From the NCBI GenBank assembly GCA_973895155.1, contig OZ316893.1, positions 16,832,645 to 16,896,644 on the forward strand: DNA of 64,000 nucleotides. Reading direction: 5' to 3'. The notes beneath the pieces were generated by a model. That model made no database searches. It saw only the letters and a list, made by a program, of their open reading frames with translations, and was not told the origin of the DNA. The position numbers and the translations under genes were made by a program. This document shows, piece after piece, positions 9,761-54,728 of this stretch (position 1 is its first letter; each line of letters opens with the position of its first letter). Source of the DNA: Marsupella aquatica. Taxonomy: Eukaryota; Plantae; Marchantiophyta.

Positions 9761-10095
9761 CGAGGGTCTTTGACACATTTTGCGGTTTTGAGCAGACAGC
9801 TTAGTTTTGAGCACGCAGCTTTGTGAAGTTGGCGACCCTCGCCGAGATCTTTTCCCAACACGATACAGCCAAGCGTAGCGCCTAACCCACCAAGGAGAGA
9901 CAATGTATGAAGTTTCCAAAACAATTATAGTAAAGATCAAGTCGGCGGTCTCGCTGACATTCTAATTTGGTCGCATTATTGTGTACGGAAAGGACATATT
10001 GGGTCCGCTTGAATGATTTTATGATGTTGGCGAGTACGCCGACATATCCTTGCCAATGTTAGAGACCTCGCCCACATCCCCTCACTATGGACCCT

Positions 10096-13442: not shown

Positions 13443-13575
13443 TGTCGTGAGGTAATGAGTCTCCAACAGATCTTCTAGTCCGGGAGGTTTTATATATAGG
13501 TGTATGTATCATGTACACCCCTGGTTAGGGTGACTTAACCAGGGTAAATGGTGACTAGACGTGGGGATTATAACA
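13443..13575 (-). repeat. 3' LTR of the Bianca-like Copia
   Basis: TGT...ACA termini; matches 17852-17984; PPT adjacent at 13576-13586. Confidence 0.95.
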
Positions 13576-13944
13576 CTCCCCCTTGGCTAAATAGTGGTAG
13601 CTATGTAGACAACTAATCCTATGAGTCTAGTCTTTGTTGATTATGTTTATGGAGTGTATATGATAGGTGTACAAGCGAGGAGGACTGCCTCGTTAAAAAA
13701 CCTTTATCAACTCTAGCTTAGTAAAAACTCTACCAGTGTAGTAGAGAAAAATATGAGTGCTAAAGGAAAAAGAGTGCAGTCTAACAGTCCTCGTCGTAAT
13801 AAATATCAATGTTAAGTAAAGTTAGATGCTATAGTAAATCTAGCTTTTAACATTTGTCTCATCAGTAGGTCGTCAGCAGCATATCATCAGCATCATGTCG
13901 TCAACATCATCAAGTATCATGTGGAGCAGCAGCCTCCACGGTCA

Positions 13945-16427: not shown

Positions 16428-17837
16428 TGGGGTGGTGGCTCGATTCCTTTTAGTGGTACTTTAGGCTTATTTACTAGTAGGTATAGTAGGAAATGACAAA
16501 GCACATTTCTGCGGCATGCAAGGTGGGGCTGGGTGGAGAGAGCATGCAAATCCAAAATTCAATTTTAGGGTTTGCACTTAGGATTTAGGTTTTCCTTGGT
16601 ATTTGGTTAACTGCAAAGTTTCCTTTGTATTTTCTCTTTCCTTTGTTAAACTGTGCAGTAATGAAGTTTTGCAGTCTGTGCAGTTATGGGTGATTCTTTA
16701 CTCGTACCCTAGTTAATTGCACTTTCGGCTTTGTAAAGTTAATTTTCTTTGTTACGGGATGCAGTTATGGAGGTTTTGCGGTTATGTGCGCTTATTTGGT
16801 TAAGTGCAACTTTTCCTTTGTAATTGAAATTTCTTTGACAGATTTTGCAGTTAAAGAGGTTTTGCACTTAGCAGCGGTTCTCGAGGTTTTCTCGACATTT
16901 TTGCAATTTTGTTGCAAGATTTGTCGAGGTGCCGTCTTGCTTCCGGGGCTCCTTCGATCACGATTTCATATCCTCTCTCGAGCAATGTCTTCTTGAGGTT
17001 CTCCAATCAACCCCGGTTGCTCCTTTGCTTCTCTTTGTCGATAGTTTCTTCCAGATTCTCAAGGTACCGATTCTCGCTGTGACTTTCCTGAGCACTTTCT
17101 TCGCCTTATTTCTACACAAGCTCCATGGGACTGCCTTTTTGATGGTCAGAGGATCAAATGGTAGGGCTGCGCCTTCCTTCGCCTGTGTCACAACGCTATC
17201 CTGAATTCGTCTTCCTTTAAATCCAACCATTTCCTGGAATCTCCATAGCCCCTCTCAAGTTTCTTTGCCTCTTCGTTGTTCTGCTATATTGTCCTTACGA
17301 GTTCAAGTCTCAATGTCCCTGTGGCATTTCTTTGAAATTTTGGTGCTGCCTGTCTTTTCCTTTTTCGGCTCTTACAGATCTTCGATCCTAGTCTCTCAAT
17401 TCTTATTTCCTCATGATTCCTGGATTCACCTTGCTACTAATCGTTCTCATTCAATCCTGCCTACTCTTTTTGTTTTCTATTGGTTCTTCTCGATTCACTC
17501 CGCTCAGTCTGATCGTTAATCTTATACAATCCCATTCACCATTGCAATTCAATTTTCTGCGCTCGGTTCTCCGTTGTTATCTTTTGGCATATCCTTATGA
17601 ATGTTGTTTTTGTTTCTCTGCCCTTGGTTCTCTGCTTCTCAACCTCTCGCGCTCCTCTTATCACTTTTTGGGTCTGTTTCCTTCATTCGTCATTGGGCAT
17701 TTTTCTCCCCTATCCTTTCCTTTAAGCCTTATCAATCTGTTTCCTTATGAGTCTCGATTCTTGCTTTTCTTAATTTCTTGCGCTCCGTTGGGTCCTCGAA
17801 AAAAAATCTTAGCCTCCTTGCTCAGCCTCGGTGAGTC

Positions 17838-17851
17838 TCGTGCTGATAACG
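17838..17851 (-). promoter_or_regulatory. Primer-binding site complementary to the tRNA-Ile anticodon arm (half-tRNA priming)
   Basis: Plus strand TCGTGCTGATAACG directly inside the 5' LTR; resembles the plant tRNA-Ile(AAU) anticodon arm TCGTGCTAATAACG recalled from memory. Confidence 0.7.
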
Positions 17852-17984
17852 TGTCGTGAGGTAATGAGTCTCCAACAGATCTTCTAGTCCGGGAGGTTTT
17901 ATATATAGGTGTATGTATCATGTACACCCCTGGTTAGGGTGACTTAACCAGGGTAAACGGTGACTAGACGTGGGGATTATAACA
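17852..17984 (-). repeat. 5' LTR of the Bianca-like Copia
   Basis: Matches 13443-13575 except GGTAAACGG vs GGTAAATGG. Confidence 0.95.
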
Positions 17985-22453: not shown

Positions 22454-25400
22454 TTAATATTGGGGTAGGAAATATTTCTTGACACGGAACCCATTGATTC
22501 TGGTGTCGAGTTCTTGACCATCCAGCGTGGTGAGTGTAAGAGATCCATTTTCCCATACTTTAATCACATTATATGGGCCAAGCCAATGAGTATGTAACTT
22601 TCCAGGGAATAACATATATCTTGAATCGAAAACAAGAACCAAGTCACCTGCTTTAATATGTACTGTCTTCAGTTTTTGATCATAAATCAGTTTCCTTTTG
22701 GACTGTTGAGTATTAGTTTCTTGAAGGGCAAGGAAACGCTCTTCTTCCAATAAATCAAGGGTATCATATCGATAGTTTAAGCTGTCCTCTTTGTTCATCC
22801 TCTCTTCATCCAAAATTCTATGAGTAGGAACCTCAAATTTAACTGGTACAATACTATCTAATCCATATGTAAGAAAAAATGGAGTTTTCTTGGTGGTTAT
22901 CTTTTCTGCCGTTCAGTATGCCCACAGTGCTGAGGCTAACTTGGTATCCCAATCAACCTTATGAGTGGAGACCATTTTATTCAAAATCTTACCCATTATG
23001 CTATTAGCTCGCTCTGTTAGTCCATTTGCTCGGGGGTTGTATGGTGTGGTCTTTCGATGCTTAATAAGGTACTTGGAGTTAATAAGGTCAATAGTTTTAT
23101 TCAAGAAATGTAAGCCCCTATCACTCACCAGCTCCAAAGGGCAACCAAATCGGGTAATAATGTGTTCGAATAAGAAGGTAGCTGCAGTGTCTTCATTGTT
23201 CAATCTAGTATGTTTGGCTTCAACCCATTTTGTGGCATAGTCAGTTGCTAAAATAATATACCGGCTTCTGCTATATCTAGCTGCAGGGGTTATGGGACCA
23301 ATAAAGTCTATACCCCATTTTTCAAAGGGGGCAAGTGGCAAGATTGGAGTCAAAGGCCATTTGGAGGATGGAGTTGGTTTACCTATCTGTTGGTAGGGAT
23401 CACAACTTTTTATAAACTGATAAGTATCCTTGTGCATGGTAGGCCACCAATAACCGGCACCCTTAATTTTTTTAACATTAGTATTTACTGCAAAATGTCC
23501 TCCAGTTTGCTCCGTGTGCATAGCAAGGATTACTCAGGATATTTCTCGGGTTTCCAAACATCGATGCAATTTTTGGTTGGAAAGCAATTTAATTAGAACT
23601 CCTTTAATCAAGGTGTAAGGGCCAACCTTATGCATAAATACCGATTTCTCTTCAGCAGTAAGTCCAGGTGGATAGGTTCCATGTGTGAGCATTTGAACTA
23701 TATCATAATATTTAGATTCCTCTCCTTCAATATGCCAGATATGCTCATCAGGGAAATTATCTTCTAGAGGTTCTACACTCTCTTGACCAGGTAAGCGGGA
23801 GAGACAGTCAACATTATCATGATGCTTACCGGCCCGGACTTCAACTTCATAATCAAACTCTTGAAGTAGGAGTACCCATCGTGGTATTCTTTCGCTCAGG
23901 TAGGCCTGATTGACTAAGTACTTAAGAGAGTATCTGTATGGAAAATGGTCTTATAACCCAACAAATAATGTCGGAACTTTTTACAAGAAAATATTACTGC
24001 CAGAGCTTCTCGTTCAGTGACTGTATAATTTTTCTCAGTTGAGTTCATTTGGCGACTGGCATAATAAATAGGGTGGTCCTTTTTATTTTTGTCAAGTTGA
24101 CTTAAGGCTGCACCAACACAAAAAGCATAGGCATCTATATAGACATGAAATGGCTTTTCCCAATTTGGTGGTTGAAGTATGGGGGCAGAGGTCAGTTTGC
24201 TTTTCAAGGCATCAAAAGCTAGCTGTCGAGCTTCATTCCATATGTAATCCACATCTTTCTTTAATAACTGTGTAAGGCTCATGGCCAATTCAGCATAATT
24301 ATGGATGAAGCGTCTATAGTACCCAACATATCCTAGGAACGCCCAAAGTTTTTTCAAATTACTTGGAGGCTGTAAGGCTTGGATAATACAAACTTTTTCA
24401 GTATCCACTTCAATTCCTCTTTGTGATATGACATGACCTAGAAAAATTCATTCCTTCATTCCGATAAAACATTTATCTGGGTGGAGGCATAGCTGGGACT
24501 CTCGGCATCTCTGAAAAGTTTGCTCAAGATGATGTAAATGAAGTTTTGCAGCTCCATAAACACAAAAATCATCTATGAATATTTCTAAAAAAATTCTGAG
24601 AAAATCCTGGAAAATAATCATCATGATTCTTTGAAAGGTGCCTGGGGCATTCCATAAGCCAAATGGCATCACTTGAAATGCATAAGTCCCCCAATCTGTA
24701 GTAAAGGTTGTTTTATCTTGGTCCTCTTTTCTTATGGATACTTGATTATAACCAGAGTAGCCATCTAAAAAGCTGTAAAGTTCATGAAGAGCCATCATAT
24801 CCAAAACCATATCAATAAAAGGTAAAGGGTAATGATCCTTGCGGGTGACATCATTAAGTTTTCTGAAATCCTGACATACTTTGATCTTTGGTTTACCATC
24901 CGGTCCAGGCTTCTTTGGAACAATTACAATTGGTGATACCCATTCACTACTGAGTATTGGATAAATAAAACCGGCTGATAGTAACTTATCAAGCTCCTCC
25001 TTAACCATAATGGAATACTTTGGATTTAGCCGATACTTGCGTTGTCTTACTGGTATAGCCCCTGGTAACAAATCAATTCTATGTTCTCCCAATTTAGGAT
25101 GTATACCTTTAAGGTCAGTGTGACTCCAGGCAAAGACATCTCGATATTGTTGTAGCAAGGAAATATACTTCTCTCTTAATTCCCCTTGTATATGGTCACT
25201 AATATTTAGAAACTTTCCTAGTTCAATCTCCACCTTCTGACACTTCCTCGGGTCAACTATCCCATCAGTTAAATTAGCAGGAGTTTTCTCCCATGATCCC
25301 TCCAAGGCTAGTAAGTCACTGTCAGATCCCGACCCCCTGGTTAATTGTCATTTTGGTACTAACCCAATACTTTCTTCTTCTGTCTCAAATACTGAGAGAT

Positions 25401-25760
25401 AATTAACTTCTAAGAATTTTTGAGTAGTAGTTAGTAGATTAGAGTCCGAGAAATCAGAAGTATATCCGTCGTCACTTTGTGTTTCTCCTTGGTATTGGTC
25501 ACTAACCCAACGTAAGGTCACTTTAGGGTTTCCAAAGGATAATTCCTGATTCTTCCAGTTCACATTTACTTTGGCTTTATATAACCAAGGTCTGCCTAAG
25601 AGTACTGGAAAGCTGGAAGGAATATCAGGATTAATCACAATATAATCCAATAAAAAGGTAAGTCCAATGATGTCAGTGGGTACCTTCAACAATCGCCCTT
25701 TTGGAACCACTCTGGATTGATCAGCCATTCTCAATATCTTCTAGCGTCATCACTTTGATG
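22454..25760 (-). pseudogene. Ty3/Gypsy pol (protease, RT, RNase H, integrase), disrupted
   Basis: VLLGRPWL; SEWVSPIVIVPKK, VCQDFRKLN, DGYSGYNQ, MPFGL, FIDDF; YTVTEREALAV; PFEKWGIDFIGP, SDRG, NGLTERAN; WLGPY...INGFRVKKY. Confidence 0.95.
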
Positions 25761-27017
25761 ACATCCCTGCCAGGGTGCAGTCCTTCTTGGACTATCGGTT
25801 TGGCGATAGTCCAAACCCGGGCGGACCTTCCTCAATTGCAGCATTGCTCGGCTTTCCTATGGGAACACAGGGCCCCATGGCACCTCCTCTAGTAGCACCT
25901 GTGGCCAACTTTCCCGCATCAAAACAAGCACAGATGCCACCCCAGGCACCCTTAAGCCGCTCTCCCCCACTGGTTGCACCATCTACTTGTGCGCGGTCTG
26001 TGGTGAATGCAGTCAACCTCAGCTCAGAGGATGAGGAAGCCCCTTCCCTTCACCGCAATCCACTAGGTACCTATCACCCTGGGGCGGGTATCGTGCCACC
26101 GTCCCAATCCCAAACCCGGGAGGCAATCCTGATAGACAACACGGTGACGGTTACAGCCCCAACACTAGTACTAACGGCAAGGGTCATTGTAACGTGCAAG
26201 GAAATAGTAAAAACATTCCTCGCACGGGAACATTTTCTCCTCCATATATGCAAAATCTGGCATGGTTATCACCTTGCTAGCATGACTTGAAACTTGCTAG
26301 GACAAAACTAATCTGTTAAACAACAGAAAATTCACTATTCCACTCAATAACGAAACCTGTCGTGGACGGTACATTTGTACATATCACGTATTTCACGCAC
26401 AATTGGCCACTCAAAGCAACAATAAGTGACCATACTATTTGAACATACGTCAGGCCAGCAAAATTGCTAGCAATCGTGCCACCCATAATTCTTGCACGAA
26501 CTTTGGCATGCGGTCCTTAACAACGTGAAACAATCATCATGATAACAGACAAGGAGCGCATCCAAGGACAGAATCCAAAGCTTCATCCGGCCGTCGAGCG
26601 TGACACCCGCAACAGACAAGATCCCAAACCGTTGGGAAGGATCGATCTCCCACTATCCACCATCCCCTATAGAAACATCTCCCTCGCACCTTTAGAAACA
26701 TTTCCATTCATTCCATTTTGGATACTCTTTCGAGCTCTCTTTCTGTTCAACGTGGGACTCGAAACGCGCTTCTCTTGTTGTCATCGCGGGAGTCAAAGCC
26801 CTGTTGTGACTTGTGCTACTGTTGTTACAGCATTACATCAAGTTCCTCCTCAATCACAAGCACGATAGATTTGGCAGTCGGATCCGGATTGAGGTATCTC
26901 CGTTCTCTGTCATCTGTTTCCCACCTGCTGTTTGGTATTCTCTCAGGTACTCGTTGTCATCGGCTTTCTAGTTTGTCAACATAAGTAGACCTTGCATAAG
27001 ATTGTAAGTAATCTGAA

Positions 27018-27614
27018 TTGCATTGGTTTCTGTTACAGGGAGAAATGGCACGGAACGAGAGTAGAGCTCCTCCAAAATGGATTTTCAAAGTCGGGCGATA
27101 TTATGCCAAAACGGACGATCCACTGGACTCCCCACCAAGGTCCCCTCCACCGAAGCAGAGTACTGTCAACACTGTAGTGAAGAGCAATACATCTCCTTCC
27201 AATTGCGTGGCTCCCGTTGTCTCCAAGGACTCAAAGGTTGCCGCACCTTCTAAAGAGACGTTGTCCAAGGCGGTCTCCCGAACACCATTGTCTTCTCGCT
27301 CAAATGTCCCTATCTCTAAGGGGGTTTCTGAGAAGTGCAAGAGAGAAGAGGAGGAGTCATACTGGAGGACCTCGAGATCCACAACTATTGGACGGAAAAC
27401 GTACTCGCTTCCTCCGACTATGATACAGTCTCCGACTTTGATTTCGACGCGTACAAGGCATCGAGCCCTTAAACAGAAGTCCAATATCAGTAGTCCATCT
27501 TCTAGGGGGCATAGACATTTTGTAATAGTGTATTGTATCCTGAGTCTGGTCCCTGGACCTTGGAGTTGCAAAGAGTTCTTGGACATTTCACGTGTAACAA
27601 AGTTATATGTCTAA
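27018..27614 (+). CDS. Ser/Pro/basic low-complexity ORF, possible further MULE-B cargo exon
   Basis: 198-aa ORF with a possible TTACAG acceptor at ~27038 before MARNESRAPPKW; no domain recognised. Confidence 0.3.
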   Translation: MHWFLLQGEMARNESRAPPKWIFKVGRYYAKTDDPLDSPPRSPPPKQSTVNTVVKSNTSPSNCVAPVVSKDSKVAAPSKETLSKAVSRTPLSSRSNVPISKGVSEKCKREEEESYWRTSRSTTIGRKTYSLPPTMIQSPTLISTRTRHRALKQKSNISSPSSRGHRHFVIVYCILSLVPGPWSCKEFLDISRVTKLYV

Positions 27615-28027
27615 ACATCTTTGTTCATTTTGCAATAAAATCTTGAGAAGTTTGTCAGATTGTAATGTTCCAACCTGTCCTATTATTGCTAGCAACATCG
27701 CTAGTAAAACTATGCATGACTACAATGGTTTGTTTTCTTGCACACATGAGTTATGGAACTCTAAGTTAAGTAGATCTTCGTCAAACAGTACCCGTTTAGC
27801 ACAAAACCAAAAACAGTTACTTCACGAGTTTAATGCCAGCAACATCGCTAGCAAAATAAACAACAATGTGGACACTTACTGAATCATAATAGACCCTCAC
27901 TAACATTACATACACAATATAATTAGTGAGGTACAGGACCTTCCTCTGTTCTGAAAACCAGAAGGCAACAAAATGAGGGACGCAGAAATGTTCACCTCAA
28001 TGGATAATAGAGATTAAGTCAACTACA

Positions 28028-31000
28028 CTACAACAGAATCAAACTCCTCACTTCAGCAGCAGTCAAAATTGGCTGCTTCACAAGATCGTCTCTCTCTAGA
28101 TTCAGTGAAAAATTATTTAAGTACACCCACAGGAGGTGTTTACAAGACATGTGTGTGTCTCTTGTAGAAGTCATCACATGAACAAGAAGGAAAGCAAGTG
28201 GACCCAGCACTGGTGTGCAATTTTAGAATCTGTCTTGTGAGTGACGATAAGATATTGCCATCCCCACCCGTTTCCGAGACATATCTTCTCACTTCCAATG
28301 ACTCTCTTATGTTTGCCAGTTGCAGATCGAATGCGTTTAAGAAGCTCCGGGGTGTTCTGGAAACGTTGACGAACGCCTTTCCCATTCCAGGTCTTGAATG
28401 TACGGTCTGGACAACCAATGTCAACTCTTTTTGGGAAGGCGTTCACATCAATTTGGAGGTCAACACGATTTGGAGAAGAGAATGACCCGATCATTGCTGG
28501 ACCAGAGTATGATAATCCTCTGATTTGAAACCCGTTTTGAAGAAGAAAGTCAATCTCTGTTGGGGACAGCCTGGTCCCTCGCTGGACCTGCAATGCCTCA
28601 GGTGGTTCTGAAAGCTGGGCAAGAGTCCTTTTGCCACCTGTTTTATGGCACCTATTATTCGGACAGAGTACAGAAGCTGACAATGTGGAGAGGACAACCT
28701 CAATCCATGAAAGGCAACACCAACAACTCCAGCCCGGAATGCCTTCAATCCAGTTTCTTTGATGAGATTCCTGCACTAATCTCTTCCAAACACACTTTGG
28801 TCCACTCGTCCATTGCAAATATGTCCACTCCCTTTTCCACTCCGCCTCAAGTGCCAGGTCCCATACGTCACATCAACCTCTTCAATAAAAGGGATCCTTT
28901 GGGGTGCATCCCGAATTTCATCCCGATTATTTTGAGACGGTGGTATTTCTCCAACATAGTTTGGGTCCTATGTTGCATCTCCACGGCTTCGTTCTTCACC
29001 ATCATCTGATATATTAATAACTTCACAAGGGAGGGGAGGTCTAAGGCAAGTGGGATTGTCTTCATTGTCAGGAAAGTCAGAAGGTCCACCAATATCAGAA
29101 GCACCGCTAAAGTTACTAAATTTGGTGTAAGATTTCTTCTTTTCAAACTAGACAACGATGCTACTATGCGCAATATCTTATCATGTCAATGAGAATAGTT
29201 TTCATGAATAGAAGCAAAAGCACTACCCTTCCTTTTTCCTTGCGTTGTTCTAAGATCTCCATGTAAAGGCATTGTTCTATAGAACTCATATTTTCCAGAG
29301 GATTCAAATAGTAGATTGGATGCCTCCTCATAGGCATCCAACGACCCCATTGTATCTGCATTTCTATAGGCCAACTCAAATATTGTAGGACCATTGCCAC
29401 GATGACACCCTTCCAAGTATGCAGTGAACGCTGCAATTTGTCCCGTTGCTCAATTCTGGTCAACTTCACAGGCTTCCATCAAACCATTTTTCTTCTTCGG
29501 CTGGCAGGAACGCATTGATGCGTGAGAAGATTCAGCTCCCGCACAGTTTGGCATCAAAGCAGACTCCCTTGCAGTTTGCGTCTGGAAAATAAACAGAGTT
29601 AACACTTGTATTCACTAGCGATATGTCTAGCTTGAGGCATACTCATGTTTGAGTCAGTGACAGAAAAACCTTTACAAAAAGAAGTATTATGGCTAGCAAT
29701 CTCGCTAGCTTTAATGCATCACAAATAATGGCCCGGTACTTACCACCCAAATAAAGTTACCCCATTGTCTCCACTGCACAACCCACCATGAAATCCACCC
29801 TTGGAGTGATTTAAGCTTGGAACCTGGGTGACAATTCCCTTCTTTCCACCATTTCTGAATGTTGTCGGCTATACAATATGCTTCGACGTATGTTGGAGCA
29901 ATTCTTAACTTCTCCCACATCTTATAGTGCTCCGCATGACATCCCTCCTTGATTCCCTCCAAAGTGTGTCTTCTGAGGGATTGAGAGAAATGGAAAGCAT
30001 CACTATGCTCTTTCATTGGATTTCTGACACCCCCCAAAAATACCCTTTGGATAGCAATCCACCCAGCCTCCGCATTGTCTGCTATGAATCCTCCAATAAT
30101 GGGATTATTCACTCCATTCTTGGATGTGACATCTACCATTAACCTCCACGCAGTCTCAAGCGACTATGTGTCTTTGGCTCTCAACTCACAAGTGAAAATT
30201 GTACACAAAGCGCGTTAATTATGGTCATACACGTGTGCGCTAAAGGTCAACCATCCAGTAGTGATACGATGCATCACGTCAAAACTCACCAAAGAACCTT
30301 CCAAAACTCCTCCAGACTCCATGCTCCTCAAAATTTCCACACCAGATCCAGGACCATTTGTACTCATTTTGAATACATGCGCTCGATCATTTCTGTTTCC
30401 TTGACCAGGAAACAGGTACCTTTGCACAAAAGGGAAATTATTACATGATTGCATTTCACAAAGTGAGTCAAGTTCTCCTTTTTGGGGATTATCCATCTTC
30501 ACACTACGAAGAATAGCTTGGAACTTTGGAGTGGTCAAAACCACTCCAATCGAACTCCAAATTTCTTTCTATTCTTCTCTTGACAATTGAGCCGATGATT
30601 CTGGATGCAATAGGGAGACTAGGTTCCCAATTGACCGGTTTCTCAGACATGCAGGAGTTGAGACTAGATTCAACCTATGGACTCCTTAAACAACATCTTC
30701 CGTTGTTTTTCTTGTAGAATGAGATTTTCCCTTCCAAACGGGGTGGTCATTGAATCCCATATGCACAGCCAATCTGGACATATGCATTGAAATGTGACTC
30801 TCCAAACCTAGCTTAGGGTATACATACAATAGTTTTGTCGGGCAATCTCGAATACAGAGAGGCCTCTCTTCACAGAAGCCATAGACGAGTCCACCCTCAC
30901 TCACTTGCTCTCCAAGACGAAAGATGTCAGTCAGCAACCCTTTGCCTCTAAAAGTGCAGTCATTTTTCACTCAAGTATGTTTCAACTTCCGGCAACCCCA

Positions 31001-31813
31001 ATTATGGCATTCAAGAATGCTATCACAACGGACTTTTGACACAGCCCAATGAAACCTTGGCTTCAAATTTTCAAATGTAGTGACGAGTCTAGTCCAAGGA
31101 TAGCCATCCTTCTCTTGAACCATATCTTGGAGACCTCCTCCGTGCCCGACCCCCTTGACTGTAGGAAGTTCAAAAACAACGTTACCATTGTATGTCGATG
31201 GCGGACTCAAAACCTGACATTCATTCAATTGATTCCCTCTTCTAAATTGTGCAAGTTCACTTGCTCCACTGATATTGAGAAAAGCGTCATAAGCACTCAT
31301 CCGATACACTATGGTCATGCTATCCCCAGTCCTTTGAATCAATTTTGTCACTAACCCTTTGGGTTCGGAACCACCTCATGACTTCACCGACCCACAAGAT
31401 GTGTCTTGCCTTAGACTATCTAGAGATATTTCAATGACATCGGGAGCTATGTCTTTGGGAGGCATCCCAAGATCAATCATAGGAGTTTGATTACCGGGAG
31501 CTAAATCCACTGGTTCCAGAATGACATCAGGAAACTCATCTTTACTGGACAGAACCTTGACATAAGATCCAACCTTCAGTGTCCAAAATTCGGGGGAAGT
31601 ACTATTGTCCTCTCTCAACTCGTGACTCCGTGTTCCATTTTGAGAATACAACTCAAACAACTTCATGATGAGGTAATCTTTTGGTATTCCAAAACGAGTT
31701 GCAAGGAATGACTCTGTCACCCTCACCTCTGACGAACCAGGGATACTTGGCAGTACAACCACATCTCCCATGATTCTATGCTCCAAAACCACCTTGGAAT
31801 TCATCGAGATCAT
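28028..31813 (-). pseudogene. MULE-type transposase (GCM-like Zn, DDE, SWIM), many stops and frameshifts; intron 29582-29743
   Basis: Blocks homologous to MULE-A: GDVVV...ATRFG, VFELP, FKMSTNGPGSGVE, FDVMHRI, GFIADNAEAGW, SDAFHFSQS, MPNCAGAESSHASM, FPSCSCDDF...CKHLLW. Confidence 0.88.
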
Positions 31814-33523
31814 CTCTTCTCAGGATACAAAAAATAAAACGACTATGTTTTGAATCGTCCATACGACTCTTATTTGGAGGACCAAAACTTTGTTCATCCC
31901 AATGGAAACAACACATCGACCAAATTGTCAGATAGTTCCCGTTGATTTGACCGTTATTTTTTCTTTTACTCAATGTATTGGGACGGTTCCCATGCTAGCA
32001 ATCTTGCTAGCTTGGGTGTGCATGTTTTTGGACAAACATCCTGTTGATTTTGACCTCTTTTGAAGGAGATCTGTATCATGGTTTTTATGCTAGCGATATC
32101 GCTAGCCAAAAAGTAAATCCAATGTTTACAAATTTTACCGTTAGGATTCCATTGGGAATAGTCAATGGGTACCATAATGTCAACGGTACAAATTACAGTT
32201 GACACCTATACCATTTTGTATGGATAAGATTATCCTTGTCGTGAAGGTTGTTCTTTGGGTTTTCCAAAAAGTACAACTAGTGGTCTATGCCAGGAGATTT
32301 CTATTATTCCTTCCATCGTACTATCGATCGGTGTCAGTATTCACTATCGTAACTGTGTAAGGCTTTGTTGGGAGTTCCTAACAGTTTGTACGGCTGTCCT
32401 ATTTCTCCTAAAGGCGGTGCGGTGTGGACGTTTTTCATGCGTGCAATTGCTATAGTCTCTGGACATGACCACTCTTCTCCGAAGGGGTTTATTTCATGGA
32501 GTCATCGTTGTCTCTAGAGACTATTTCTTCGAGAGGATCATTTTAGTTGAGGGAGTCGACAAGGAGAGAAACCAGGTCAACAGCTAACAAGAAGGCGCTT
32601 GTAGTGGGCTTGAAGACTCCTAGACGACACAAGATGGTGACGGCGGTAGATGTTGTGGCTCCTGTGTTTGATCCGAGCGCTTCGAAACCTTACACGGTTG
32701 TCATAAACCGTCATCTTCACTCATTCGGAGTGAATGAGTTTGGATTTGCATTGGCTCCCCCTCAAATTCCTCTCTGCCGGATGAGGAACATGCAGATTGT
32801 TTGGTCTCTGCAGAAGGATTCCACTGTGATAGACACATTGAAGTCCGAGTTCAGAATGCAGGGTTACATCAAAGATGCGCCTCGCTTTTACGTTCAGATG
32901 ACAAACAAGGATGGAGAAATCCAGATGTGTATCGATGCCATCCGCGAAACTTGGGATGATATTTGGGTGTTGCAGAACGAGGAGTTTGAACGCGAATGTG
33001 ATTCTCATGTTTCTTTCCAGATTCTCAAGGACAAAATGTTTTGTGTTTTTGATGGAAACCACCAATTGTATTCGTGGGGCCAACTGGCGGAAGATCATCC
33101 AGACAATATTAAGTACCATCCTCGAGTTGTCTGCAAGATTTTCAAGGGTGAAAAAAACTCTTTTGTTCAGATTAAGTCGGCAATGCACGCATTGAACAGG
33201 TGCAAGTTCTCAGGATAATATTTTTCTGAAATTCCTTTTTTACCATATCACTTTCAGCTAGCGATCTCGCTAACATGAGAATGATGTGGAAGGTTAACTC
33301 AATGTCCTGTAGAGAACTCCTGGGTTTTGGAGGCTGAACGCGTCCAGAAGATTTTGAACAATGACTTGTCCGTTTACAAGGATATCATCGACGCTGAGAA
33401 TTACAAACTTTTCCAACATAAGATGGCAAACATGCGAAGGCCGCCTGGTATTCAAAGAACATGACACTGGATGCCTGCACTTATATACTATTCGCTGCTA
33501 ACATTGCATCGCAGACCGAGGAC

Positions 33524-36392
33524 CTGAGTTATGCCTACTGTCCCTGAGTCGAGGATCCTTACCTCTTCAGAGAAGACGAAAGCTTCGCTAATCCTTGACA
33601 TTGAGGAGGATTTTGAGGATTTTCAAACTCATTTCTTCAAGCAGATTTGGCCCCCCAAGACAAGAGAGAAGATCAAGATTGCATTGTTTCGGAGGAGAGC
33701 GAAGAGATACACTATCAATTTTTTGTAGACAGGGAAGTAGCAGACAAATTCTACTGGTGGTCCTACCCAGCTTGCTTCTCCCCATGGATAGCAGGAGTTA
33801 AAGAGGACCCTACAGGTGATAAGTTTGGGGAATATTGTATGTTTCCTTGCAAGGGAAGTGAAGCTCCAAGGAGATTGAGCGAGTGGGAGGTTCTTCACTG
33901 TCCATGGTATTTGAACTCGGACAAATGGTCTATGTAATTAGGTGATTATTCCAAAAAGAGAGTTAAAGTACCAAAACCATACATTTTAAAAAATTTTAAG
34001 TTTTTATAAGGCCCTTTAAGCAAAATTAAGTTAGTATAAGCTCAAATGGGTAAGGATACCATTGGAAGACGTCAAGGCTACTCTGGTTTTCACATATTAG
34101 AAGTCAAGACGGCAAGAAGTTGAAAGGAGCTTCGGAGGTGATCGCCAAGCAGGTGGCTGTCTTGTCTACTACTGGTGATACCTATCTGACACCCTACTTG
34201 GCGCACATTTACTTTTCGAGAGGCTGCTTATCACCAGTGGAGCTGAGCGATTGGAGGAGGAGAGCGAGACACTTTGAGCTACCTCAGCCAGAGTTAGTGA
34301 GAGAGTTGACTCCACCACCGACGACATCTCCGAGACCCCCTCCAATGGAGCAGACGACAGCACCAGATCTACCAGGGATGACTTCTCCCTCTTTTGTTGC
34401 TTCCACTTCTTATCCGTCATGGACTGATTTTGTTGGTGATGCTGAGCGACTAGCTAGTGTGGTTGGTTTCAACCAGCATTTGGTAGATGAGGCCACTAGA
34501 CTCTTGAGTTGTACCCCTCTACAGTTACTTGACTGTATTCGTGCTTTGCTTTCCGAGTCTCGTACCGTCCCACCCACTCATGTTTCACCCCTTGCACCTT
34601 CACCACAGCCTGATCACCCTATGGATGTGGATGAGCCGGAGCTACCTATTGCTGACCCTTCACTCCCTCCTCCATCCTCACCTACACCCCCTCTACCTGA
34701 TCCCATTCTTTCCCCTATCCCTCCTACATTTTCACCTGAGCACCCTCCATCTCCTACCCCTGAGCCTTTACCCCCTTCACCAGTACCCCCTCCAGATCCA
34801 TTTTCCTCTATTCCTGAACCTATTCCTGAACCTATTCCTGAACCTATTCCTGAGACTGAGCCTGAGCCTGAGACTATAGAGCCTCCCAATGTACCATTTA
34901 TAGCTCCTACTCCTTTGATGTCTCAGCCTCCTATTGTCTCTTCTGTTGCCGACATTGAGCCTCTTTTTGTCTTTCCCGCCCAGTTTGATAGGATGATTAC
35001 GTCACTCATCGACGCACACACTCCTCTTGCACCTCCTTTACCTCCACTTATGTTTGGTCGTGAGTCTTTTCCTTTTCCACACACCTACGACATGGTTCTG
35101 ATTTCTCGTGGTATTCTATGGCTACCTATCGACAAGCTGAGATTACCCACGATTGAGACTCCTGACCTTTGGAGTTGGGTTTATCGTTGTAGAAAGGTCA
35201 TAGCACCTTTCCCTCTTCCAGCTCCAGACATTCCATGGCCATCAGATTACTTTGTTTGGATCGGACCGGATGGACATCCCATCCGGAAGACCAGTGAGCC
35301 TCGTTTGATTCGTTACCGTGAGGACCTTTTCCGTCGACAGTATTTGAAGGGACAGAGGACCAAAGGGAAGATAGCCCTTGGTTATGTAGCTCGCCTCCCT
35401 CTACTTGTAGTCGACCCTCCTCCTATTACAGTATGAGATTAGTATTTTATTTTGTAGACTTTTACTTAGCTTTGACCATTTGACTATCCCTTAGTCAAAG
35501 TTGACTTTTACTTTACTTAGTTTAGACTTAGGAAATGAAGAGGCATGTCTCTTCATTCTCCTTAGCCCGTGGGCGATCTCATGTACTTATTGTGATACCA
35601 GTCTCATTTTGAGACAGTGTGGATAGTTATTTGCATCTCCTCATGTTGGAGTTTTGTCCCTTGTACGTGTAATGCAATTTTGCAAGGAAGATTCGCATAC
35701 CTTGGAATTTGATTACTTGTGCTAGGAGTCTACCCCTCCTTCGTATGGTAATGCATGTTGCAATTACCGTAAGAAGTAAAACCCATAAAAATACAGTTTG
35801 TGGAATGTATTAGAAGATCCGTTGGTCGGTGCCTAATCCAAACTACAACATTTGTTGTCCATTTCTGTATTTACATGAAGGACTTATCTTTGGAAGATAA
35901 GTATTGCATGAAATCAAGGAATAGAAATCTATATGATTAAGAAGTAGCGACATTCTTAATTCACGGATTTGAAGTACCATTGTGGTATACTGAATGTGCA
36001 TTAGTTTTTCTTTGGAATTGCGCATCGCTGAAGAAGGAAACATGTTGCCGGCATTTTAATGACACACTACTATACACACAATCTGAAACTTATCTTGGGT
36101 TTTGTGAGCATAGACACTTCTTAAACATAGATTTATGATAGAAACCTAGAGAGCAGCTATAGCAAGGTTATGTTTGACTTATCAACGTCTCAAATAATGC
36201 CATAGCTCTTTCTTAAGACATGGTGACGGAGTTAAATATTGCTAAACTATACCTCTAAAAGCTCTAAGATTCTGTTGTCCAGCAAATGTCACTTTGTTCT
36301 TATTTTATTAATTCCTTGTGTTTTATTTAAGATTCTATTTTTCTTATAGATGTTGAGTACCATCTCTAAACCACTCAAAACACTTTAAAACA
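33524..36392 (+). mobile_element. Composite retroelement/LTR-derived insertion within the MULE-B accessory gene
   Basis: Contains ORF 34120 (homologous to the Gypsy LTR ORF), AT-rich non-coding DNA ending ...TTTAAAACA, and no GCTAGC palindromes; boundaries approximate. Confidence 0.5.
34120..35436 (+). pseudogene. 5'-truncated Pro-rich Gypsy-associated extra ORF
   Basis: EVIAKQV...YLTPYLAHIYFSRGCL aligns with RVILSQV...TLPAYLCQLYFHGNCL of ORF 20050; 12-bp PEPI repeats at ~34810-34870. Confidence 0.6.
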
Positions 36393-39300
36393 TCTTTTCA
36401 TCCCATTCTTGTTCTTCCACGGGAACGAACACCGAGTTTTTAGCATATATTCGATGATATTTGCTTTTGATAGCATACGACAGTCTATGACCTTTGACAC
36501 TGTAGAGAAAGCAGCTCTTCCCATGATCAATCGGGGATTCCTTCCGGAATCTTACATCTTGGAGTCCAAATTGGCACCCACTGATGCTGAAGTTGGTGGT
36601 TGCGAGGCAATGGGAAAGGCTTGTCTTGGTGTAGCTGCCATAATGGATAGGAGTCGAGCTCAAAAGCCAAGAGAAGGAGCATTGAAGGACACATCCAAAG
36701 ATGGGTCCCAGTTATCGAGAAAGCCAAGTTAGTCTGTCAATTTTTTGTTACTTTTTATTTTCAAGTCCGAATGTGTGTCAAATATACAGACACTAATGGC
36801 TTTTGTTTCACAGAGAGGAGGAAGGGTGCGGCTTCTGAGAGTTTGAAGAGTGGAGCAGATGATGGTGATGAACCTCAGTCCCCAGATGTCAAAGTTACAA
36901 CAAAGAGCGCAGTGGATTTAGGAAGTATAAAGCATTTGAAACGGAAGCGGAATATCCAGATTCTTTCAGATTTGGACGATGAAGAAGTTTCAGTTGCTCA
37001 AGGTGTTGCTCGGATGTGTGGTTTGAAGATGGATGGGTAGAGACATTTCCTCGCTTGCAGCAATTTGACCGACACTGCAAACTCAATCAGCGTAAATAAA
37101 GTGAGGCCATCTTGGATGGGAGATGGAGATTGATGGATTATTGGGATGTCAAAGAGCGTGAGTGCCCGAACACTATCTTAATTAATGGAAAGCCTTATGC
37201 TGGGATTGGAGCACATTTGGGATTCATTTCTCTTCCAACTAGGCATAGAACACGCGTTACAGACAAAGAGGTCCCGTCTTGGAATGTTTGGAGCGAGAAA
37301 CTGCTGTATTATTTTTTTGGAGTGATGAGACCAATGCTTTCAGATGACGGATATGTTGCTGTGCTGCACAGCTCGAATTTCAATCACATGAGGCAAATAT
37401 TTACGATAGTCGAGAAAAAAACAAATTCAAACATGTTTAGCAATATACCGTTTTGTTGTCTACCCCTTTATGGAGAGCAGATATGGATATTGAGGTAATT
37501 ATCCCTTCAACTTTTGGAGATGTTTTATACTAGCAATGTCGCTAACAAAATGTTAATTTTCCACTCCTCAACATGATCGGTTTACCTATTATTTTTCCAT
37601 TTTTTGATTCAGTTAATGCTAGCGAGCTCGCTAACAAAGTTTTCAATATTTCTAAAGGATTATGGTTCTTTGTTCAGGTGTGCACTCTCATACTGGAAGT
37701 TTTCTGTCGTGTGGAATTTAATGCTAAGATTCCTAAAGACCCAGTGTATGTTCCTTTGACGTCTTCGGAAGATGCAAGACATAAGTCAATGTTGAGTGTT
37801 TGTTACCCTAAGACTGACCCATGTCCAGCAGCGGCTGTTGCTGGATCAAAAAGGCTTTCAATTGGGTTCATGCAAGCCGTGATGGAATTCCTCACAAAGC
37901 CCAAAGACATAGTCCTTGACTGGACTGTGTGTGACGGGAGCTCGTTTTCTGCCGGAGAATACTCCGGGAGGTTTGTTGTCGGTGTTGAGGACAGGGACAT
38001 TCTCCATTCCTGTGCTCAAAAAGGTTTAAACAGTGTTCTTGAGAGGCACTCGAGCAAGGCAAAGATGATTAAGGATCAGGCAGCCAAGGGTAATCAAGAC
38101 GCTGGGTCGGATGATGAGTTCACGATTCCAGGAGATGAACAGGCTGGGCCTTCAAGCGAGAAAGACGAATTCGACCTGGAGTAAAGTACTTGGCCTCGTC
38201 TGATGTCGGACTCCCTATTTGGTTTCTGTTGTTTTCTTCATTTTGTTGCTCTTCGTCAACTGATGCCGGTGGTTGCGTCAGTGATAGGAGGGTGGATTGG
38301 TTTTCTGAGGAGAGATTTCGTCTTCGGAAGGAAGTCCATGAATCCATTGTGGTTACTCCTGAGAAGCCTTTTACTCTTCTGTGCTATGCTGAGACATCGG
38401 CGAAGCAGGTTGATGAAGCTCCTGTGGTCTTGACTTGGAAGCGAAAGGTCTTCGATCAATGAGAGGTGCTCGAAGATATCTGGATTGTTCAAGGTTTATC
38501 GACAATGAGGCGGGGACAGTCCATCAGTATTTAGATGAGTCTGCCGAGTCCACAGAGAGGGAGACCAGTAGCGATCCTAGTAGTAGTGACATATCTGATG
38601 ATTTAGAGGATGAAGTTTATGACCGAACAAGTAGGAATTTGTAGGACTGGATGTATTGGTCGAAGTCGACTCTTACAGTTTTGCTGTGTTGGAGTTTTTG
38701 GCGATCCACACTTTCAATGTAAAGAGGGACCATATTATGATGGAAGTGTCTACTTGTGGTGATCTTTTTTCGAAAAAACAATGTGTGTGGCTCAAGTATG
38801 GAATGGATATGACAATCATGCATGGTTTTTCCTTGTGATTTTCTTTGATTATTGTAAGAGGTGGAAAACTGAGATATTTTGGCATTGTTTTCATGGAATG
38901 TATTAGGACTTCGAAGGCCAAAAATGCCTCTTTAACAATACCGCCTCGCTAGCAAAATCTCCTGTTTCCTCGCACCATACAATTCCTCGATGATTATTGT
39001 CTTCCCTTTATTTGGGTCTCTTGCCTGTGGTATCTTGTCTTCCCAGTTGTGCCCCTTTGTAATATATATTTCCGGAGCGGCCGAGGAAAACCTAATGTAC
39101 TATCCATCAACTCCCGGAAAGCTCTTACTGAGGCCGCTAACGAGGACTGAGTAGCACAACCCAGTGCCGGTGGGTACGGCTCCACTCTCTTGCTGCCGTG
39201 CCACACCAGCCATGTGATCTTCTTCGAGTTCATTTCGACTTCGAATCCAAAGCCGACTTTCAACTTTGAAACCTCTAATTCAAGTGGCAGCAAGTACGCA

Positions 39301-39668
39301 AGCAAAAGGCACCGGTGGAATTAAATCGATGCAGTCAACGCCTGACTTGATCGATATGATGCTGCCAAACGGTGAGCGCATCCGCGCAAATCTGACAGAG
39401 ATACTCTGTGGAATCAATTGCAACTCGGGCATCACCGATTTTTTCAATTAATTTCACAGGTCATTTTTCTGTCAGTGGCATCTTTCCACGTTTGAGAGCA
39501 GTCTATGAGGGTTTGGGCAGTCCACGAGAGCGTTTACAGCGGTGTACATTATTGCTAACCGTTACTCCGTCAGGCCATCTAATATTGTATCTTGTGTAGA
39601 GAAATGACGTTATATCATTTGTAATTCGTCTTGCGAAGGAGTCTTTGAGCTGTCTGCACTCTGCAGAC

Positions 39669-41825
39669 ATGGTTGAAGTTGGTGCTCTGTATCCTCTAAC
39701 CAAGGATGAGGAGATAGACGCGTCGATTCCCTCTTTGCCAATCCGTAAAGGATTGAATGAATTTGGCCGAAATGATTCTGCATTGTTTACTAAGCAAGTA
39801 AGTCGGAAGCACATCTCCATTGATGTATCTCCTAGTGGCACACTTGAGGTCGCCGTCGAGGGTCCGAATCCAATTGTCCTACGCTCTGGTCCCGGTAAGA
39901 AGAAACTGTTCCCCAAAAACAAATGCATTCTTAGGGATGGGGACGTGATTGAGTTCATTCCTCAAGAGCTTCCTTTCAAGTATATTTCAGTCACCGTCTC
40001 TGTTGCTGAAGCAAAGAATCTTTCAGTTATGAGGCCAGTGCTCCTCAACACAAGGAAGGAAGGGGCGCTGTTGTCTGAAGCACACCTCCTGGATGAACTC
40101 TGTCAGAAGAGGAAAAGTCAAGTTAATGAGGACGAGGCACTTGCCCGGCTGTTGCAGGAAGAAGATGAACTCGCTAGGAAGAGGAATTGTCAAGTTGACG
40201 AGGACGAGTCACTTGCTCGGTTGTTGCAAGAAGAAGTGAACACAGCTGCCGCAGGCGCTTTGGGAGAACCCGGTTTCTCAAATACTGGTCTGAAATACAG
40301 TGCAATGCCTGCCATCACGCAGCTCACGGGAGTAGATGTCAAACTTAAAAGATCGAAGATTGAATATCACGGAGGAGGTGGTGCATCGTCCTTTCAATTA
40401 ATGCGCACTCAATGTATCCCAAGGTGGGCGAATAATGGCTGCATTCGTATTCAGGACGTTATTCGGGGTGATATACAGTTGGCAGTCTTGTCTAATTACA
40501 TGGTAGACGTCAATTGGGTGTTGTCAGCATGTCCTTTGTTGCATACCGTTCCGCAAGTGGTTATGATACATGGAGAGGGTGGTCAGTCATTGGAACTGCT
40601 TCAAGCGAGCAAGCCCAAGAATTGGACTTTGTTCAAGCCACCCTTGCGTCTCTCTTATGGCACCCACCACTCAAAAGCTATGTTTCTGGTTTACCCGACA
40701 GGAGTGCGGATTATTGTCCACACAGCCAATTTGATACACGTGGATTGGAATAACAAAACACAGGGCCTATGGATGCAAGACTTTCCTTTGAAAGTCCCCG
40801 TCGGACAGATGAACAGGTCTGATTTTGAAAATGACCTTGTGGAATATCTGGAAGCTTTAGAGTGGCCCGGGTGTACCATGATATTTCCAAATATTGGTGA
40901 AGTTAAAATCAATGCAAATTTCTTTCGAAAGTTCAACTATAGTTCTGCTTCAGTACGACTAGTTGCTTCAGTACCTGGCTATCATCTTAGCCGTGATCTA
41001 ACAAGATGGGGGCATATGAAACTCCGAAAAGTATTGCAGGAGCAATTGTTTGAAGATAAATTCGAAGGTTCACCTGTTGTGTTTCAGTTCTCTTCTCTTG
41101 GATCACTGGATGAAAAATGGGTCCAAGAGCTTACAACTTCAATGTGTGCGGGTTCTACTCTTGAAAAGAAGCCCCTTGGTGTTGGTAAAGTGCAAATAGT
41201 GTGGCCGACAGTGGAGGACGTTCGTTGTTCTCTTGAGGGTTATGCAGCTGGCAATGCAGTTCCGAGTCCAGATAAAAATGTAAAGAAAGAGTTTTTGAGG
41301 AAGTACTGGGCTCGCTGGAAAGCTGAGCATGCTGGTCGCAGTCGAGCTATTCCACATATGAAGTCATATGTTCGATACAAAGGACAGTCTTTAGCCTGGT
41401 TTCTGCTAACCTCCTCAAACCTGAGCAAGGCCGCTTGGGGCTCGCTGCAAAAGAATGGTACACAGATTATGATCAGATCATACGAGCTAGGAGTATGCTT
41501 CTTACCCTCTCTGATATTGAGACCTTCGCTACGGCCTTTCTCTTGCACAGACAATGCGTCATCTGTCACGCAGGGAGGTCCCCGGACATCTCTGGTTCCA
41601 GTAACCGGAAATGATGAAGACAAAGTCCAACAAGGAAAGCTAGTGACTTCATGCCCGGTGATTGGGGCTGACGTGATTTCCACAGAGAACGTTGTCCGCT
41701 TACCAATTCCGTATAGCTTGCCACCTCCTCCTTATGGACCTGACGATGTTCCTTGGTCCTGGGATCGCCAGTACGAAAAACCAGATGTTTATGGAGATGT
41801 CTGGCCATGCAGTGTACAACTCTAA
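39669..41825 (+). CDS. TDP1: Tyrosyl-DNA phosphodiesterase 1 (FHA domain, two ubiquitin-binding-like repeats, Tdp1 catalytic domain); intronless
   Basis: FHA-like FGRND...VSRKH; DEALARLLQEE x2; YGTHHSKAM, HTANL, QFSSLGS, IPHMKSY, SSNLSKAAWG, IRSYELGV. First ATG at 39669; single open frame. Confidence 0.96.
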   Translation: MVEVGALYPLTKDEEIDASIPSLPIRKGLNEFGRNDSALFTKQVSRKHISIDVSPSGTLEVAVEGPNPIVLRSGPGKKKLFPKNKCILRDGDVIEFIPQELPFKYISVTVSVAEAKNLSVMRPVLLNTRKEGALLSEAHLLDELCQKRKSQVNEDEALARLLQEEDELARKRNCQVDEDESLARLLQEEVNTAAAGALGEPGFSNTGLKYSAMPAITQLTGVDVKLKRSKIEYHGGGGASSFQLMRTQCIPRWANNGCIRIQDVIRGDIQLAVLSNYMVDVNWVLSACPLLHTVPQVVMIHGEGGQSLELLQASKPKNWTLFKPPLRLSYGTHHSKAMFLVYPTGVRIIVHTANLIHVDWNNKTQGLWMQDFPLKVPVGQMNRSDFENDLVEYLEALEWPGCTMIFPNIGEVKINANFFRKFNYSSASVRLVASVPGYHLSRDLTRWGHMKLRKVLQEQLFEDKFEGSPVVFQFSSLGSLDEKWVQELTTSMCAGSTLEKKPLGVGKVQIVWPTVEDVRCSLEGYAAGNAVPSPDKNVKKEFLRKYWARWKAEHAGRSRAIPHMKSYVRYKGQSLAWFLLTSSNLSKAAWGSLQKNGTQIMIRSYELGVCFLPSLILRPSLRPFSCTDNASSVTQGGPRTSLVPVTGNDEDKVQQGKLVTSCPVIGADVISTENVVRLPIPYSLPPPPYGPDDVPWSWDRQYEKPDVYGDVWPCSVQL

Positions 41826-46384: not shown

Positions 46385-47150
46385 CACTAGTAGAAAACAA
46401 TGTATTTTATGACCAAAACAATGACTATTAATCAGGTCTTTTTAACAAAACAATGACGCAATTGTTCTTGTCTTTCCAGACACGTCACAACGGACATTTT
46501 GGTCACGGTCCTTTTGGACAAATGACGCTAAAAACATGTGGTCATTTCATACTATCCTAAATGACCGTTTTTATGATATGGTCATAAATGTTGAACGGTC
46601 CAAAATGACGACACAAATCACCATCGACGGTCAATTGCCGTTGACCGTCGATGGTCCCCGTACCCAATCACACAACGACACATGGCAATAAAAAAACAAA
46701 TAACATTGGTCATTTTGGACTTGTCCAAAATGACGTACATTATATAACAAATCAAATAGTGACACGTGGTTCAAAGAGGATTCACCATTTGGCAATATAT
46801 TTGGGTCATTTTGGACGTGTCCAAAATGACTACAGTATAAACAAGTCATATTGAGACACGTGGTTCAATTGGGAGAAGACACGTAAAGATACACATTAGT
46901 CATTAATGACATGTCTTGAATGACATAAAGTGAGTCATAGTGGACTTGTTTATAATGACCATGAGAAAGGTCATTGTATATGTCATTCTTTGAATCATTT
47001 AGTCTATGTCTTTAATGACCAGAGTTGAGTCATATTGGTCACAAAGATAGTTGTGAATAATGACCATTACATCAGTCATTCTAGCCAGTCATTTAGTCAT
47101 TCAAGCCAGTCATTCAGACGAAGTATTCAATGATTTGGAGAAATTCAAAT
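46385..47150. repeat. CACTA TIR and ATGAC/GTCAT-rich subterminal region
   Basis: CACTAG terminus followed by many ATGAC/GTCAT motifs in both orientations. Confidence 0.85.
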
Positions 47151-53700: not shown

Positions 53701-54728
53701 AAATACCGCACTACCTTCCTTGCCTGTAATGAATTCCCCACTCTCTTCATCTTGGGCTGCTGACACACTGAACAGTTTTCTAACTTGGCATTCTCACCCC
53801 TAAAGAGCATACAACCTTTCTCACAGATAGGGATTCTCTCATAATCCAAGCCAAGCTTTCTCAATAGCTGCTTTGCAGCATATAAGTTCTTGGGCAGATT
53901 ATGCTCTGTAGGCATACCATGCTCCCCCATCAAAGACAACAATGCATTCACTCCTTTGTTTGAGAATCCATGGCCATGACAGATGTTCAGCAGAAGCAAC
54001 ATGAATGACACAACATCTATTTTGCTGCCTGGGAACAAAGGTTGCATTGCTGCATCTAAAGATAACTGTGCAGGATCAGTCTCCACAGGAGTTTTGGAGG
54101 TTTCAAGGGGGTTTACAGGATGGGCACCTCCTTCACTCTCATCATCCCCAAGTACAAAATCCAAGTCAAAACGGTCCTGATCATCTAGCTCATGCTCAGG
54201 GGATTCTTCACTGGTTCTCAGCAACGTTTCTTCCAGTAGAGCCCTGATATGTTCTTCGACATCTATAGTTGGATGTTCTTGAACATCCACAGTTGGATAC
54301 TCTGGAACATCCACAGTTGGATACTCTGGAACATCTACAAATAAATGTTCTTCAACATCTACAGTTGGCTGTTGTGCACAGGTTGCCTGCTGAAGGTTTG
54401 CTACCCTCAATGCCTCAGGGCCATGTTGTGACATGTAGTCAGCACCCCACTCTTCATCAGAAGAGTCCTGTCCCTCTCCCACCCACACTCGACATGCAGG
54501 GTACCGACCATGTTTAATAAGGTGCAGTCTAGCAGTATTCCGATTAGTCCTATAATTCCCTTTGCAGTTCACACAAGGGCAGTACATCTTATGGTCCCCA
54601 CTCTTGTGGCAGGCCTTCTGTTCTCGAACCCACAAAGCATCATCACGATGTTGTACTCTAGCTGGATGGAAGAGCGGCAACTTTGGAGTTCTACCCACAC
54701 CTAACGTATTCTGTGGCAATTGTGCCAT
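50735..54728 (-). CDS. CACTA Tnp2/TnpD transposase, 3 exons (54728-52845, 52634-51724, 51599-50735), apparently intact, 1219 aa
   Basis: MYCPCVNC; RYFPIIPRLKRL, RNVRFGLALDGVNPF, YNLPPW, MLIPGP, WTINDYPAYG; DPMHCEKN, GLKSHDFH, FPPSFFDVMTHL, WMYPIER, VRNKARPEASMAEGY; YVFPKQVEQVFF. Splice phases give one open frame of 3660 nt. Confidence 0.92.

Follow-up and report, generated by a model that had tools for sequence, protein, structure and literature searches.

The 64-kb stretch of Marsupella aquatica contig OZ316893.1 analysed here (positions 16,832,645 to 16,896,644; hereafter the window) contains a Mutator-like element (MULE) at about 26194-38990, in which two divergent genes are accompanied by a repeated 18-bp palindrome. 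Contig depth, summed over four runs, reached hundreds to thousands between 25.5 and 39.0 kb and was 25-175 beyond 39043, and the element is therefore multi-copy. Its right end lies at about 38975-39040 and its left end is uncertain; the only terminal inverted match is an imperfect one of 10 bp (26194 / 38966-38975), and no convincing target site duplication was found at the element ends. A decayed Mutator-like transposase gene, which carries stops and frameshifts and encodes a C-terminal CxC...CKH finger, occupies 28030-31820 on the minus strand. The second gene, also decayed and referred to below as the partner gene, occupies 32634-38184 on the plus strand and encodes a ParB-fold domain (32634-33199), a helical middle and a permuted N6/N4-methyltransferase-like domain. 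The partner gene is interrupted by a nested insertion, placed at about 33935-36482 because of a 7-bp direct repeat (33928-33934 and 36483-36489) and because other copies have an empty site, with 33927 joined to 36483 in three runs. This insertion is a high-copy sequence with a proline-rich open reading frame (ORF) of 460 residues (34054-35436) and no Pfam match. A small, low-complexity third ORF of the element (27044-27500, plus strand) fell into no family found, and none of the 24 ORF pieces scanned in the window matched a Pfam family at the curated cut-off.

The palindrome has the form GCTAGC-N6-GCTAGC. Three exact copies were observed in the window against 0.01 expected, and 12 copies with at most two mismatches against 0.83 expected; of the latter, 11 are within the element, among them a weak match at 26466 that overlaps the site at 26454, and the twelfth is outside it at 57695. 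A first-pass annotation had listed ten full sites, and both pattern and matrix scans returned the same ten coordinates, but only three of these sites (29692, 31994 and 32089) are exact, the other seven having one or two mismatches. A matrix built from the ten sites themselves scored them at 20.6-30.8 bits; the next best score in the window was 9.8, and the scan found no comparable site in the remaining 51 kb. The fixed 6-bp spacing that had been claimed was borne out: when spacers of 0-15 bp were compared, a spacer of 6 gave 11 sites and all others gave 0-3, except for a spacer of 2, whose 7 matches mostly coincide with spacer-6 sites. The spacer is itself constrained, with A at position 8 and T at position 11 in all ten sites, and the consensus is GCTAGC-RA-NN-TY-GCTAGC. 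Mismatches between the two arms are strand-biased across 26454-37635 (11 A-C versus one G-T, read on the plus strand). The half sites previously noted at 26276 and 38948 were also found, as two copies of CTTGCTAG at 26273 and 26293 (26273-26301) near the probable left end and a single half site at 38946-38955 near the right end; these terminal half sites are supported by the finding that T[CT]GCTAGC occurs eight times in the window, always within 26274-38946.

When set against a homology-based gene model, all ten sites proved to be non-coding, and five of them intronic in one or other of the two genes, as the first-pass annotation had held. The leftmost site (26454-26471, one mismatch) lies in the left spacer, and two more (27688-27705 and 27835-27852, one mismatch each) lie in the spacer downstream of the transposase gene. 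The transposase intron at about 29582-29743 holds a site with two mismatches (29614-29631) and an exact one (29692-29709). Between the two divergent genes are an exact site (31994-32011) and a perfect palindrome (32089-32106). Intron 1 of the partner gene (33200-33292) contains one site (33257-33274, one mismatch) and its last intron (37495-37677) two (37529-37546 with two mismatches and 37618-37635 with one); the partner-gene intron at 36728-36813 has none. Non-coding DNA makes up 34% of the element and introns 5%, and the probability of the non-coding placement was 2e-5, or 1.7e-3 if the sites are counted as 6 clusters. Full sites thus flank and fill both genes, and the final 1.3 kb of the element contains a half site only. 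The nested insertion is free of sites, as had been reported, although its bounds are those given above and not 33.5-36.4 kb. Paired sites are 78-147 bp apart, the flanks of the ten sites are mutually unrelated, and a tandem-repeat check of the window revealed no array over any of them.

Other copies of the element were compared over the last partner-gene intron (37495-37677; runs X1 and X4, 40 of 71 rows). At least 24 variant places were observed, of which 22 lie outside the sites and two within site 37529, where one restores the consensus first G that most other copies have and the other falls at an R position. At site 37618 no variant was listed in the other copies, and the depth peaks over it. 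Conservation in other copies, which had been put forward as a check, was therefore seen in this intron, with variation outside the two sites and none inside that departs from the consensus; the depletion of variants had a probability of 0.03 at the hexamer positions, or 0.11 when both variants within the site are counted.

More distant conservation was sought in 80 metagenome loci (numbered with the prefix L). The motif occurred at least twice in L022 only, the locus whose transposase is nearest to that of the element (50% identical over the core). There, ATT-GCTAG[CT]-N6-GCTAGC-AAT occurs three times in the orthologous transposase intron, which is otherwise unalignable, with the hexamers and the spacing as in the element and with different inner bases (GCYGGC). 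That hexamers and spacing were kept in an unalignable intron around other inner bases indicates a selected feature. Together with the intron variants and the placement of the sites, this supports the family-specific address proposed by the first-pass annotation, as a real and selected palindrome in non-coding DNA. A 60-bp perfect hairpin (L022:1172-1231) is centred on the middle L022 site, and in L015 a different short palindrome is repeated in the orthologous intron. The broader notion that every family member carries the palindrome in this intron was rejected, as L022 alone of 37 loci had repeated sites.

The window also contains a homologous element, MULE-A (1-10080), whose transposase (1976-6034) is 35% identical to that of the element over 536 residues and has an intron position in common with it. 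No Pfam match was obtained for the element transposase among the ORF pieces of the window. A structural model of the MULE-A core matches the ISCth4 transposase (E 1.7e-4), a Mutator/IS256-type DDE enzyme, and the N-terminal region matches a GCM domain (1odh, E 2e-3, probability 1.0). MULE-A has a related palindrome with a GCGA..TCGC core; 46 of its sites have a 3-nt centre, and 7 further ones, at 9233-10075, have the 18-bp geometry of the element (2-nt centre). The palindrome stands in tandem arrays, dense near the ends, and one copy at 4459 is in the orthologous transposase intron. MULE-A also has two related ORFs (6974-7717 and 8216-9050).

The first-pass annotation had described the partner as ParB-like, which is upheld by its ParB-fold domain, but had missed the methyltransferase-like domain. 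A HMMER search with the first exon of the partner gene gave 210 homologues at a threshold of E 0.001, 150 of them listed, and a model of its ParB domain (predicted local distance difference test score 92.5) found its best structural matches in Noc, ParB, KorB and PadC. For Noc, ParB and KorB, Z was 7.4-8.0 with a root mean square deviation of 2.7-3.3 over 92-104 aligned residues; sulfiredoxin was lower (Z 5.0-6.3). Among the matches listed, the GxxR phosphate motif reads GNHR in 88 of the 110 homologues that show it, compared with GERR in canonical ParB. Clusters close to the ParB domain in a protein atlas included DUF3723 ones (31-47% of their members) and one with ParB_N in 11%; the DUF3723 clusters comprise Starship cargo in fungi, and a cnidarian cluster was also close to the domain encoded at 32634-33199. 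These proximities hint that mobile elements of eukaryotes carry a broader family of such ParB-like genes. No Pfam match at the cut-off was obtained for the ParB region in 25 homologues, searches of PDB sequences with the domain returned noise only, and word-index searches with the ParB and methyltransferase pieces against longer proteins returned nothing. No ParA family was detected among the 24 ORF pieces, and such a gene would find no space within the gene model. Viral contigs yielded no relative. The ParB alignment was too diverse to be used for scanning loci.

The last exon of the partner gene resembles N6/N4 methyltransferases (atlas score 0.91; PDB 5hek, E 0.019; Riccia protein P0246, E 3e-10), and Riccia protein P0248, of 1207 residues, aligns in order to the exons in the window and itself matches PF01555 at E 5e-5, below the curated cut-off. 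The domain is permuted, such that the catalytic motif IV (region 37223-37243) precedes the S-adenosylmethionine-binding motif I (region about 37900-37960). In place of the canonical (D/N/S)PP(Y/F/W), the window copy has SLPT, with no variant listed among other copies at these codons; the homologues have DLPT and DMPT in Riccia and DVPF and DFPI in Adiantum. The fusion of a ParB domain to a permuted methyltransferase with a non-canonical motif is likewise found in the Riccia and Adiantum proteins, these two genera accounting for seven of the ten homologues that were looked up. Absence of the aromatic residue of DPPY/SPPY makes ordinary methyltransferase catalysis doubtful, so the domain, judged from its sequence, may be weak, altered or merely a DNA-binding module. 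The same absence lessens the case for reading the hexamers as targets of a catalytically active methyltransferase. No RNA data set was listed with the element sequence, which says nothing on expression.

De novo dyad searches recovered the motifs of both the element and MULE-A, and gave nothing clearly above shuffled sequence in two control regions. In loci L028 and L064 they revealed a second 18-bp palindrome, ACTTTY-N6-RAAAGT. The partner gene is present in four locus clusters (L028, L031, L064 and L044). Of the 20 clusters with loci of at least 7 kb, three of the four with the gene (L028, L031 and L064) had clustered ACTTTY-N6-RAAAGT sites and none of the 16 without it did (Fisher p 0.0035); the gene-negative clusters had 0-3 scattered matches, among which single sites in L056 and L055 were strongest. 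A matrix built from L028 alone found nine sites in L064 and four clustered sites in L031. The sites lie beside the partner genes (L028:9425-12768; L064:2168-2574; L031:1997-2546), with one inside the partner-gene span in L028. These loci are decayed, and in L031 the gene and the transposase need not share one element. The transposases of L028, L031 and L064 are split by well-supported branches, and a single clade was rejected (p-AU 0.00015, under a simpler model with 19 rows that left out L039, L063, MULE-A and the window element). L064 also contains a 51-bp tandem array. Other repeated palindromes were seen near related transposases (TCTCGG-N2-CCGAGA at L007:22-760, GTTTGGGTCG-tt-CGACCCAAAC at about 2313-2366 of L015, TGGTTAA at L045:16016-16958 and ATTGAAA in L031 and L044).

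The reading that we favour, to which we give about an even chance, is that the sites address the element's own ParB/methyltransferase-like partner protein, an arrangement whose logic recalls VANC and whose form recalls parS. The fixed 6-bp spacing and the two-fold symmetry fit a dimer. A dimer of the partner protein would bind the palindromes and then act on the surrounding element. By analogy with VANC, VirB and KorB, the most likely outcome would be that the element is kept expressed against host silencing, possibly through nucleotide-gated loading of the partner at the sites and its spreading from them. A stronger version, in which a ParB clamp in a plant nucleus would load at the parS-like palindromes under nucleotide control and slide, carrying the methyltransferase-fold domain along, is unlikely, since proteins of the ParB fold differ in the nucleotide they use and in what they do. 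Under it, a handful of point sites would be enough to shield or label an entire transposon, the palindrome would differ from family to family, and a comparable role could fall to the related DUF3723 cargo genes of fungal Starships.

Several observations weigh against the partner protein as the binder. Every fold match of its ParB domain had a Foldseek E above 0.001 and a Z of at most 8.0, the window copy reads GNHQ and not GNHR, and no helix-turn-helix was detected in the partner by a profile search with long homologues against the PDB, which was empty. Proteins with this fold may use ATP or GTP as ligand, or work in ways that involve no clamping of DNA, according to the accessible parts of two reports (PMC12704722, PMC13229309). 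MULE-A has its related palindrome (46 + 7 sites), but a partner gene was not seen in the part of it that the window covers, its upstream part lying outside, and the half sites at both element ends are as expected for a transposase. The association found among the distant loci is tempered in turn by the L044 cluster, which has the partner gene without a site cluster; by the use of two of the three positive loci for motif discovery, without which p becomes 0.11; and by the many gene-negative loci that extend for less than 7 kb on one side, which leaves their lack of the gene unproven. The four partner-gene loci yielded no methyltransferase domain.

The transposase is the other candidate named by the first-pass annotation, which rightly recognized that a ParB-fold and a GCM-like domain both exist; which of the two binds is not decided, with the co-occurrence in the distant loci and the transposase tree tilting the data toward the partner protein. 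Binding by the GCM-like zinc domain, with end half sites serving transposition and internal full sites serving self-activation or autoregulation, is the main rival, a possible but less likely explanation. It draws on the GCM match of the family's N-terminal region, on the half sites at both ends, and on the related palindrome of MULE-A with its dense arrays near the ends and its copy in the same intron. In the accessible parts of the respective reports, the Muta1 transposase has subterminal repeats and a palindromic motif at the termini as its binding targets (PMC5499845) and the AtMu1 transposase alone activates cognate copies (10.64898/2026.08.24.746577). The binding cited is terminal, however, whereas the full sites of the element stop at least 1.3 kb short of its right end, and in the distant relatives the palindrome does not track the transposase tree. 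Elements nearer to L028 and to L064 in their transposases are without ACTTTY-N6-RAAAGT. Different palindromes of the same geometry in related elements fit co-evolution with an element-encoded protein, and this, with the lack of a comparable site in the other 51 kb of the window, makes it highly improbable that a host transcription factor dimer binds sites collected as enhancers, despite their promoter-proximal and intronic placement and their conservation in L022.

It is also improbable, if slightly less so, that the palindromes act as hairpins in single-stranded DNA or RNA of the transposase-sense strand and not as double-stranded binding sites. On the minus strand, 11 of the 12 transition mismatches between arms become G-T wobbles (p 0.006), the single L022 mismatch is likewise a wobble on its transposase-sense strand, and the middle L022 site lies within the 60-bp perfect hairpin. 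The hexamers are nevertheless invariant and not co-varying, the three sites in introns of the plus-strand gene are mismatched on their own transcript, and the stems are weak (-0.9 to -10.2 kcal/mol as DNA). No Rfam match was found, inspection by eye revealed little of this bias among the sites of L028 and L064, and shared ancestry of sites (repeated GCTAAC and GCCAGC variants) could produce it. Descent from local duplications or from a tiny palindromic insert, leaving functionless remnants, would agree with the pairing of sites 78-147 bp apart and with the decay of the window copy; unrelated flanks, the lack of a tandem array over the sites and their conservation against a variable background leave this the least probable explanation of all, and L022 largely refutes it.

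The remainder of the window holds other mobile sequences and repeats. An intronless ORF of 741 residues just right of the element (39600-41825) resembles, we assume from its motifs, tyrosyl-DNA phosphodiesterase 1. ORFs on the minus strand at 50735-55997 are presumably those of a CACTA-like transposase, with a Cys/His-rich ORF that we take to be PHD-like at 55326-55997. Short inverted repeats occur near 46709-46830, and a tandem array with units of about 578 bp, each holding a 52-bp imperfect palindrome, fills 59788-64000. To the left lie a Copia-like element with 99%-identical 133-bp repeats (13443-17984) and a decayed gypsy-like pol that is truncated at about 25740 (22454-25740).

Comparison with known systems bears out the terms parS-like and VANC-target-like as analogies, but the element belongs to neither system. 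The motif bound by VANC21 is located in introns and spacers (PMC5735166), and VANDAL elements resemble the present case, in the available text, as MULEs with an accessory gene and a family-specific motif in introns, spacers and ends that differs between families. Their motifs are 8-9 bp long, not palindromic as written and often tandem, compared with a dispersed 18-bp dyad here. The accessory protein here is unrelated to VANC, having other domains and no Pfam family at the curated cut-off, and tandem multiplication of the VANC type is not seen over the element sites. How a short motif de-silences a multi-kilobase element is called enigmatic in that report (PMC5735166), and the partner protein, if it indeed loads at the sites and spreads, would offer a physical answer. 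Should the transposase be the binder, the finding would shrink to a neat case of transposase sites inside an element. Spm TnpA, AtMu1 and Muta1 are alike in pairing an element-encoded protein with repeated family-specific motifs, which in the sources as available cluster at the termini.

Likeness to ParB, Noc, KorB and VirB resides in an N-terminal ParB-fold domain with GxxR and in scattered palindromic sites. VirB, which counteracts silencing, is of the ParB type and is loaded at virS (PMC10770331, in part), and KorB and Shigella VirB, as far as the accessible descriptions go, regulate genes on their own mobile element, as is proposed here. Differences are the lack of ParA, the methyltransferase-like C-terminus, the eukaryotic host and the lack of a helix-turn-helix in the profile search; loading and spreading, if true, would place a ParB-type clamp outside prokaryotes. 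Phage fusions of ParB to an N6/N4 methyltransferase have the same domain order (PMC12704722, PMC4738411, both in part) and are a plausible source of the partner gene, which differs from them in its long helical middle, its introns and its non-canonical motif IV. MpDN4MT1 and the rotifer N4CMT also represent a bacterial-type permuted amino-methyltransferase domain in a eukaryote (10.1101/2021.02.12.428880, PMC8885841), but in the available text these are host genes with an intact SPPY and shown activity, whereas the partner is transposon-borne with (D/S)LPT.

The closest parallel is found in algae. The accessible part of one report describes, in Ectocarpus Sola1-1, a gene opposite the transposase for a 1104-residue protein with ParB-like and N4/N6-methyltransferase domains, cites similar proteins in algal transposons and proposes that such accessory genes bind and modify their own transposon (PMC12477816). 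By description, the partner gene is alike in its two domains, in a length of about 1100-1200 residues and in its position opposite a transposase. Here, however, the carrier is Mutator-like and found in seed-free land plants, and a candidate target is visible where that text names neither a target nor a test of the proposal. The literature searched, from which most subscription papers were out of reach, held no target site for the algal genes and no description of the motif or of the partner gene in land-plant MULEs. ParB-methyltransferase accessory genes in algal transposons are thus already reported, and the candidate target site is what is added; together with the second site class and an annotated full-length homologue (Riccia sorocarpa KAL3677308.1), this conserved site makes the proposal from algal transposons directly testable.

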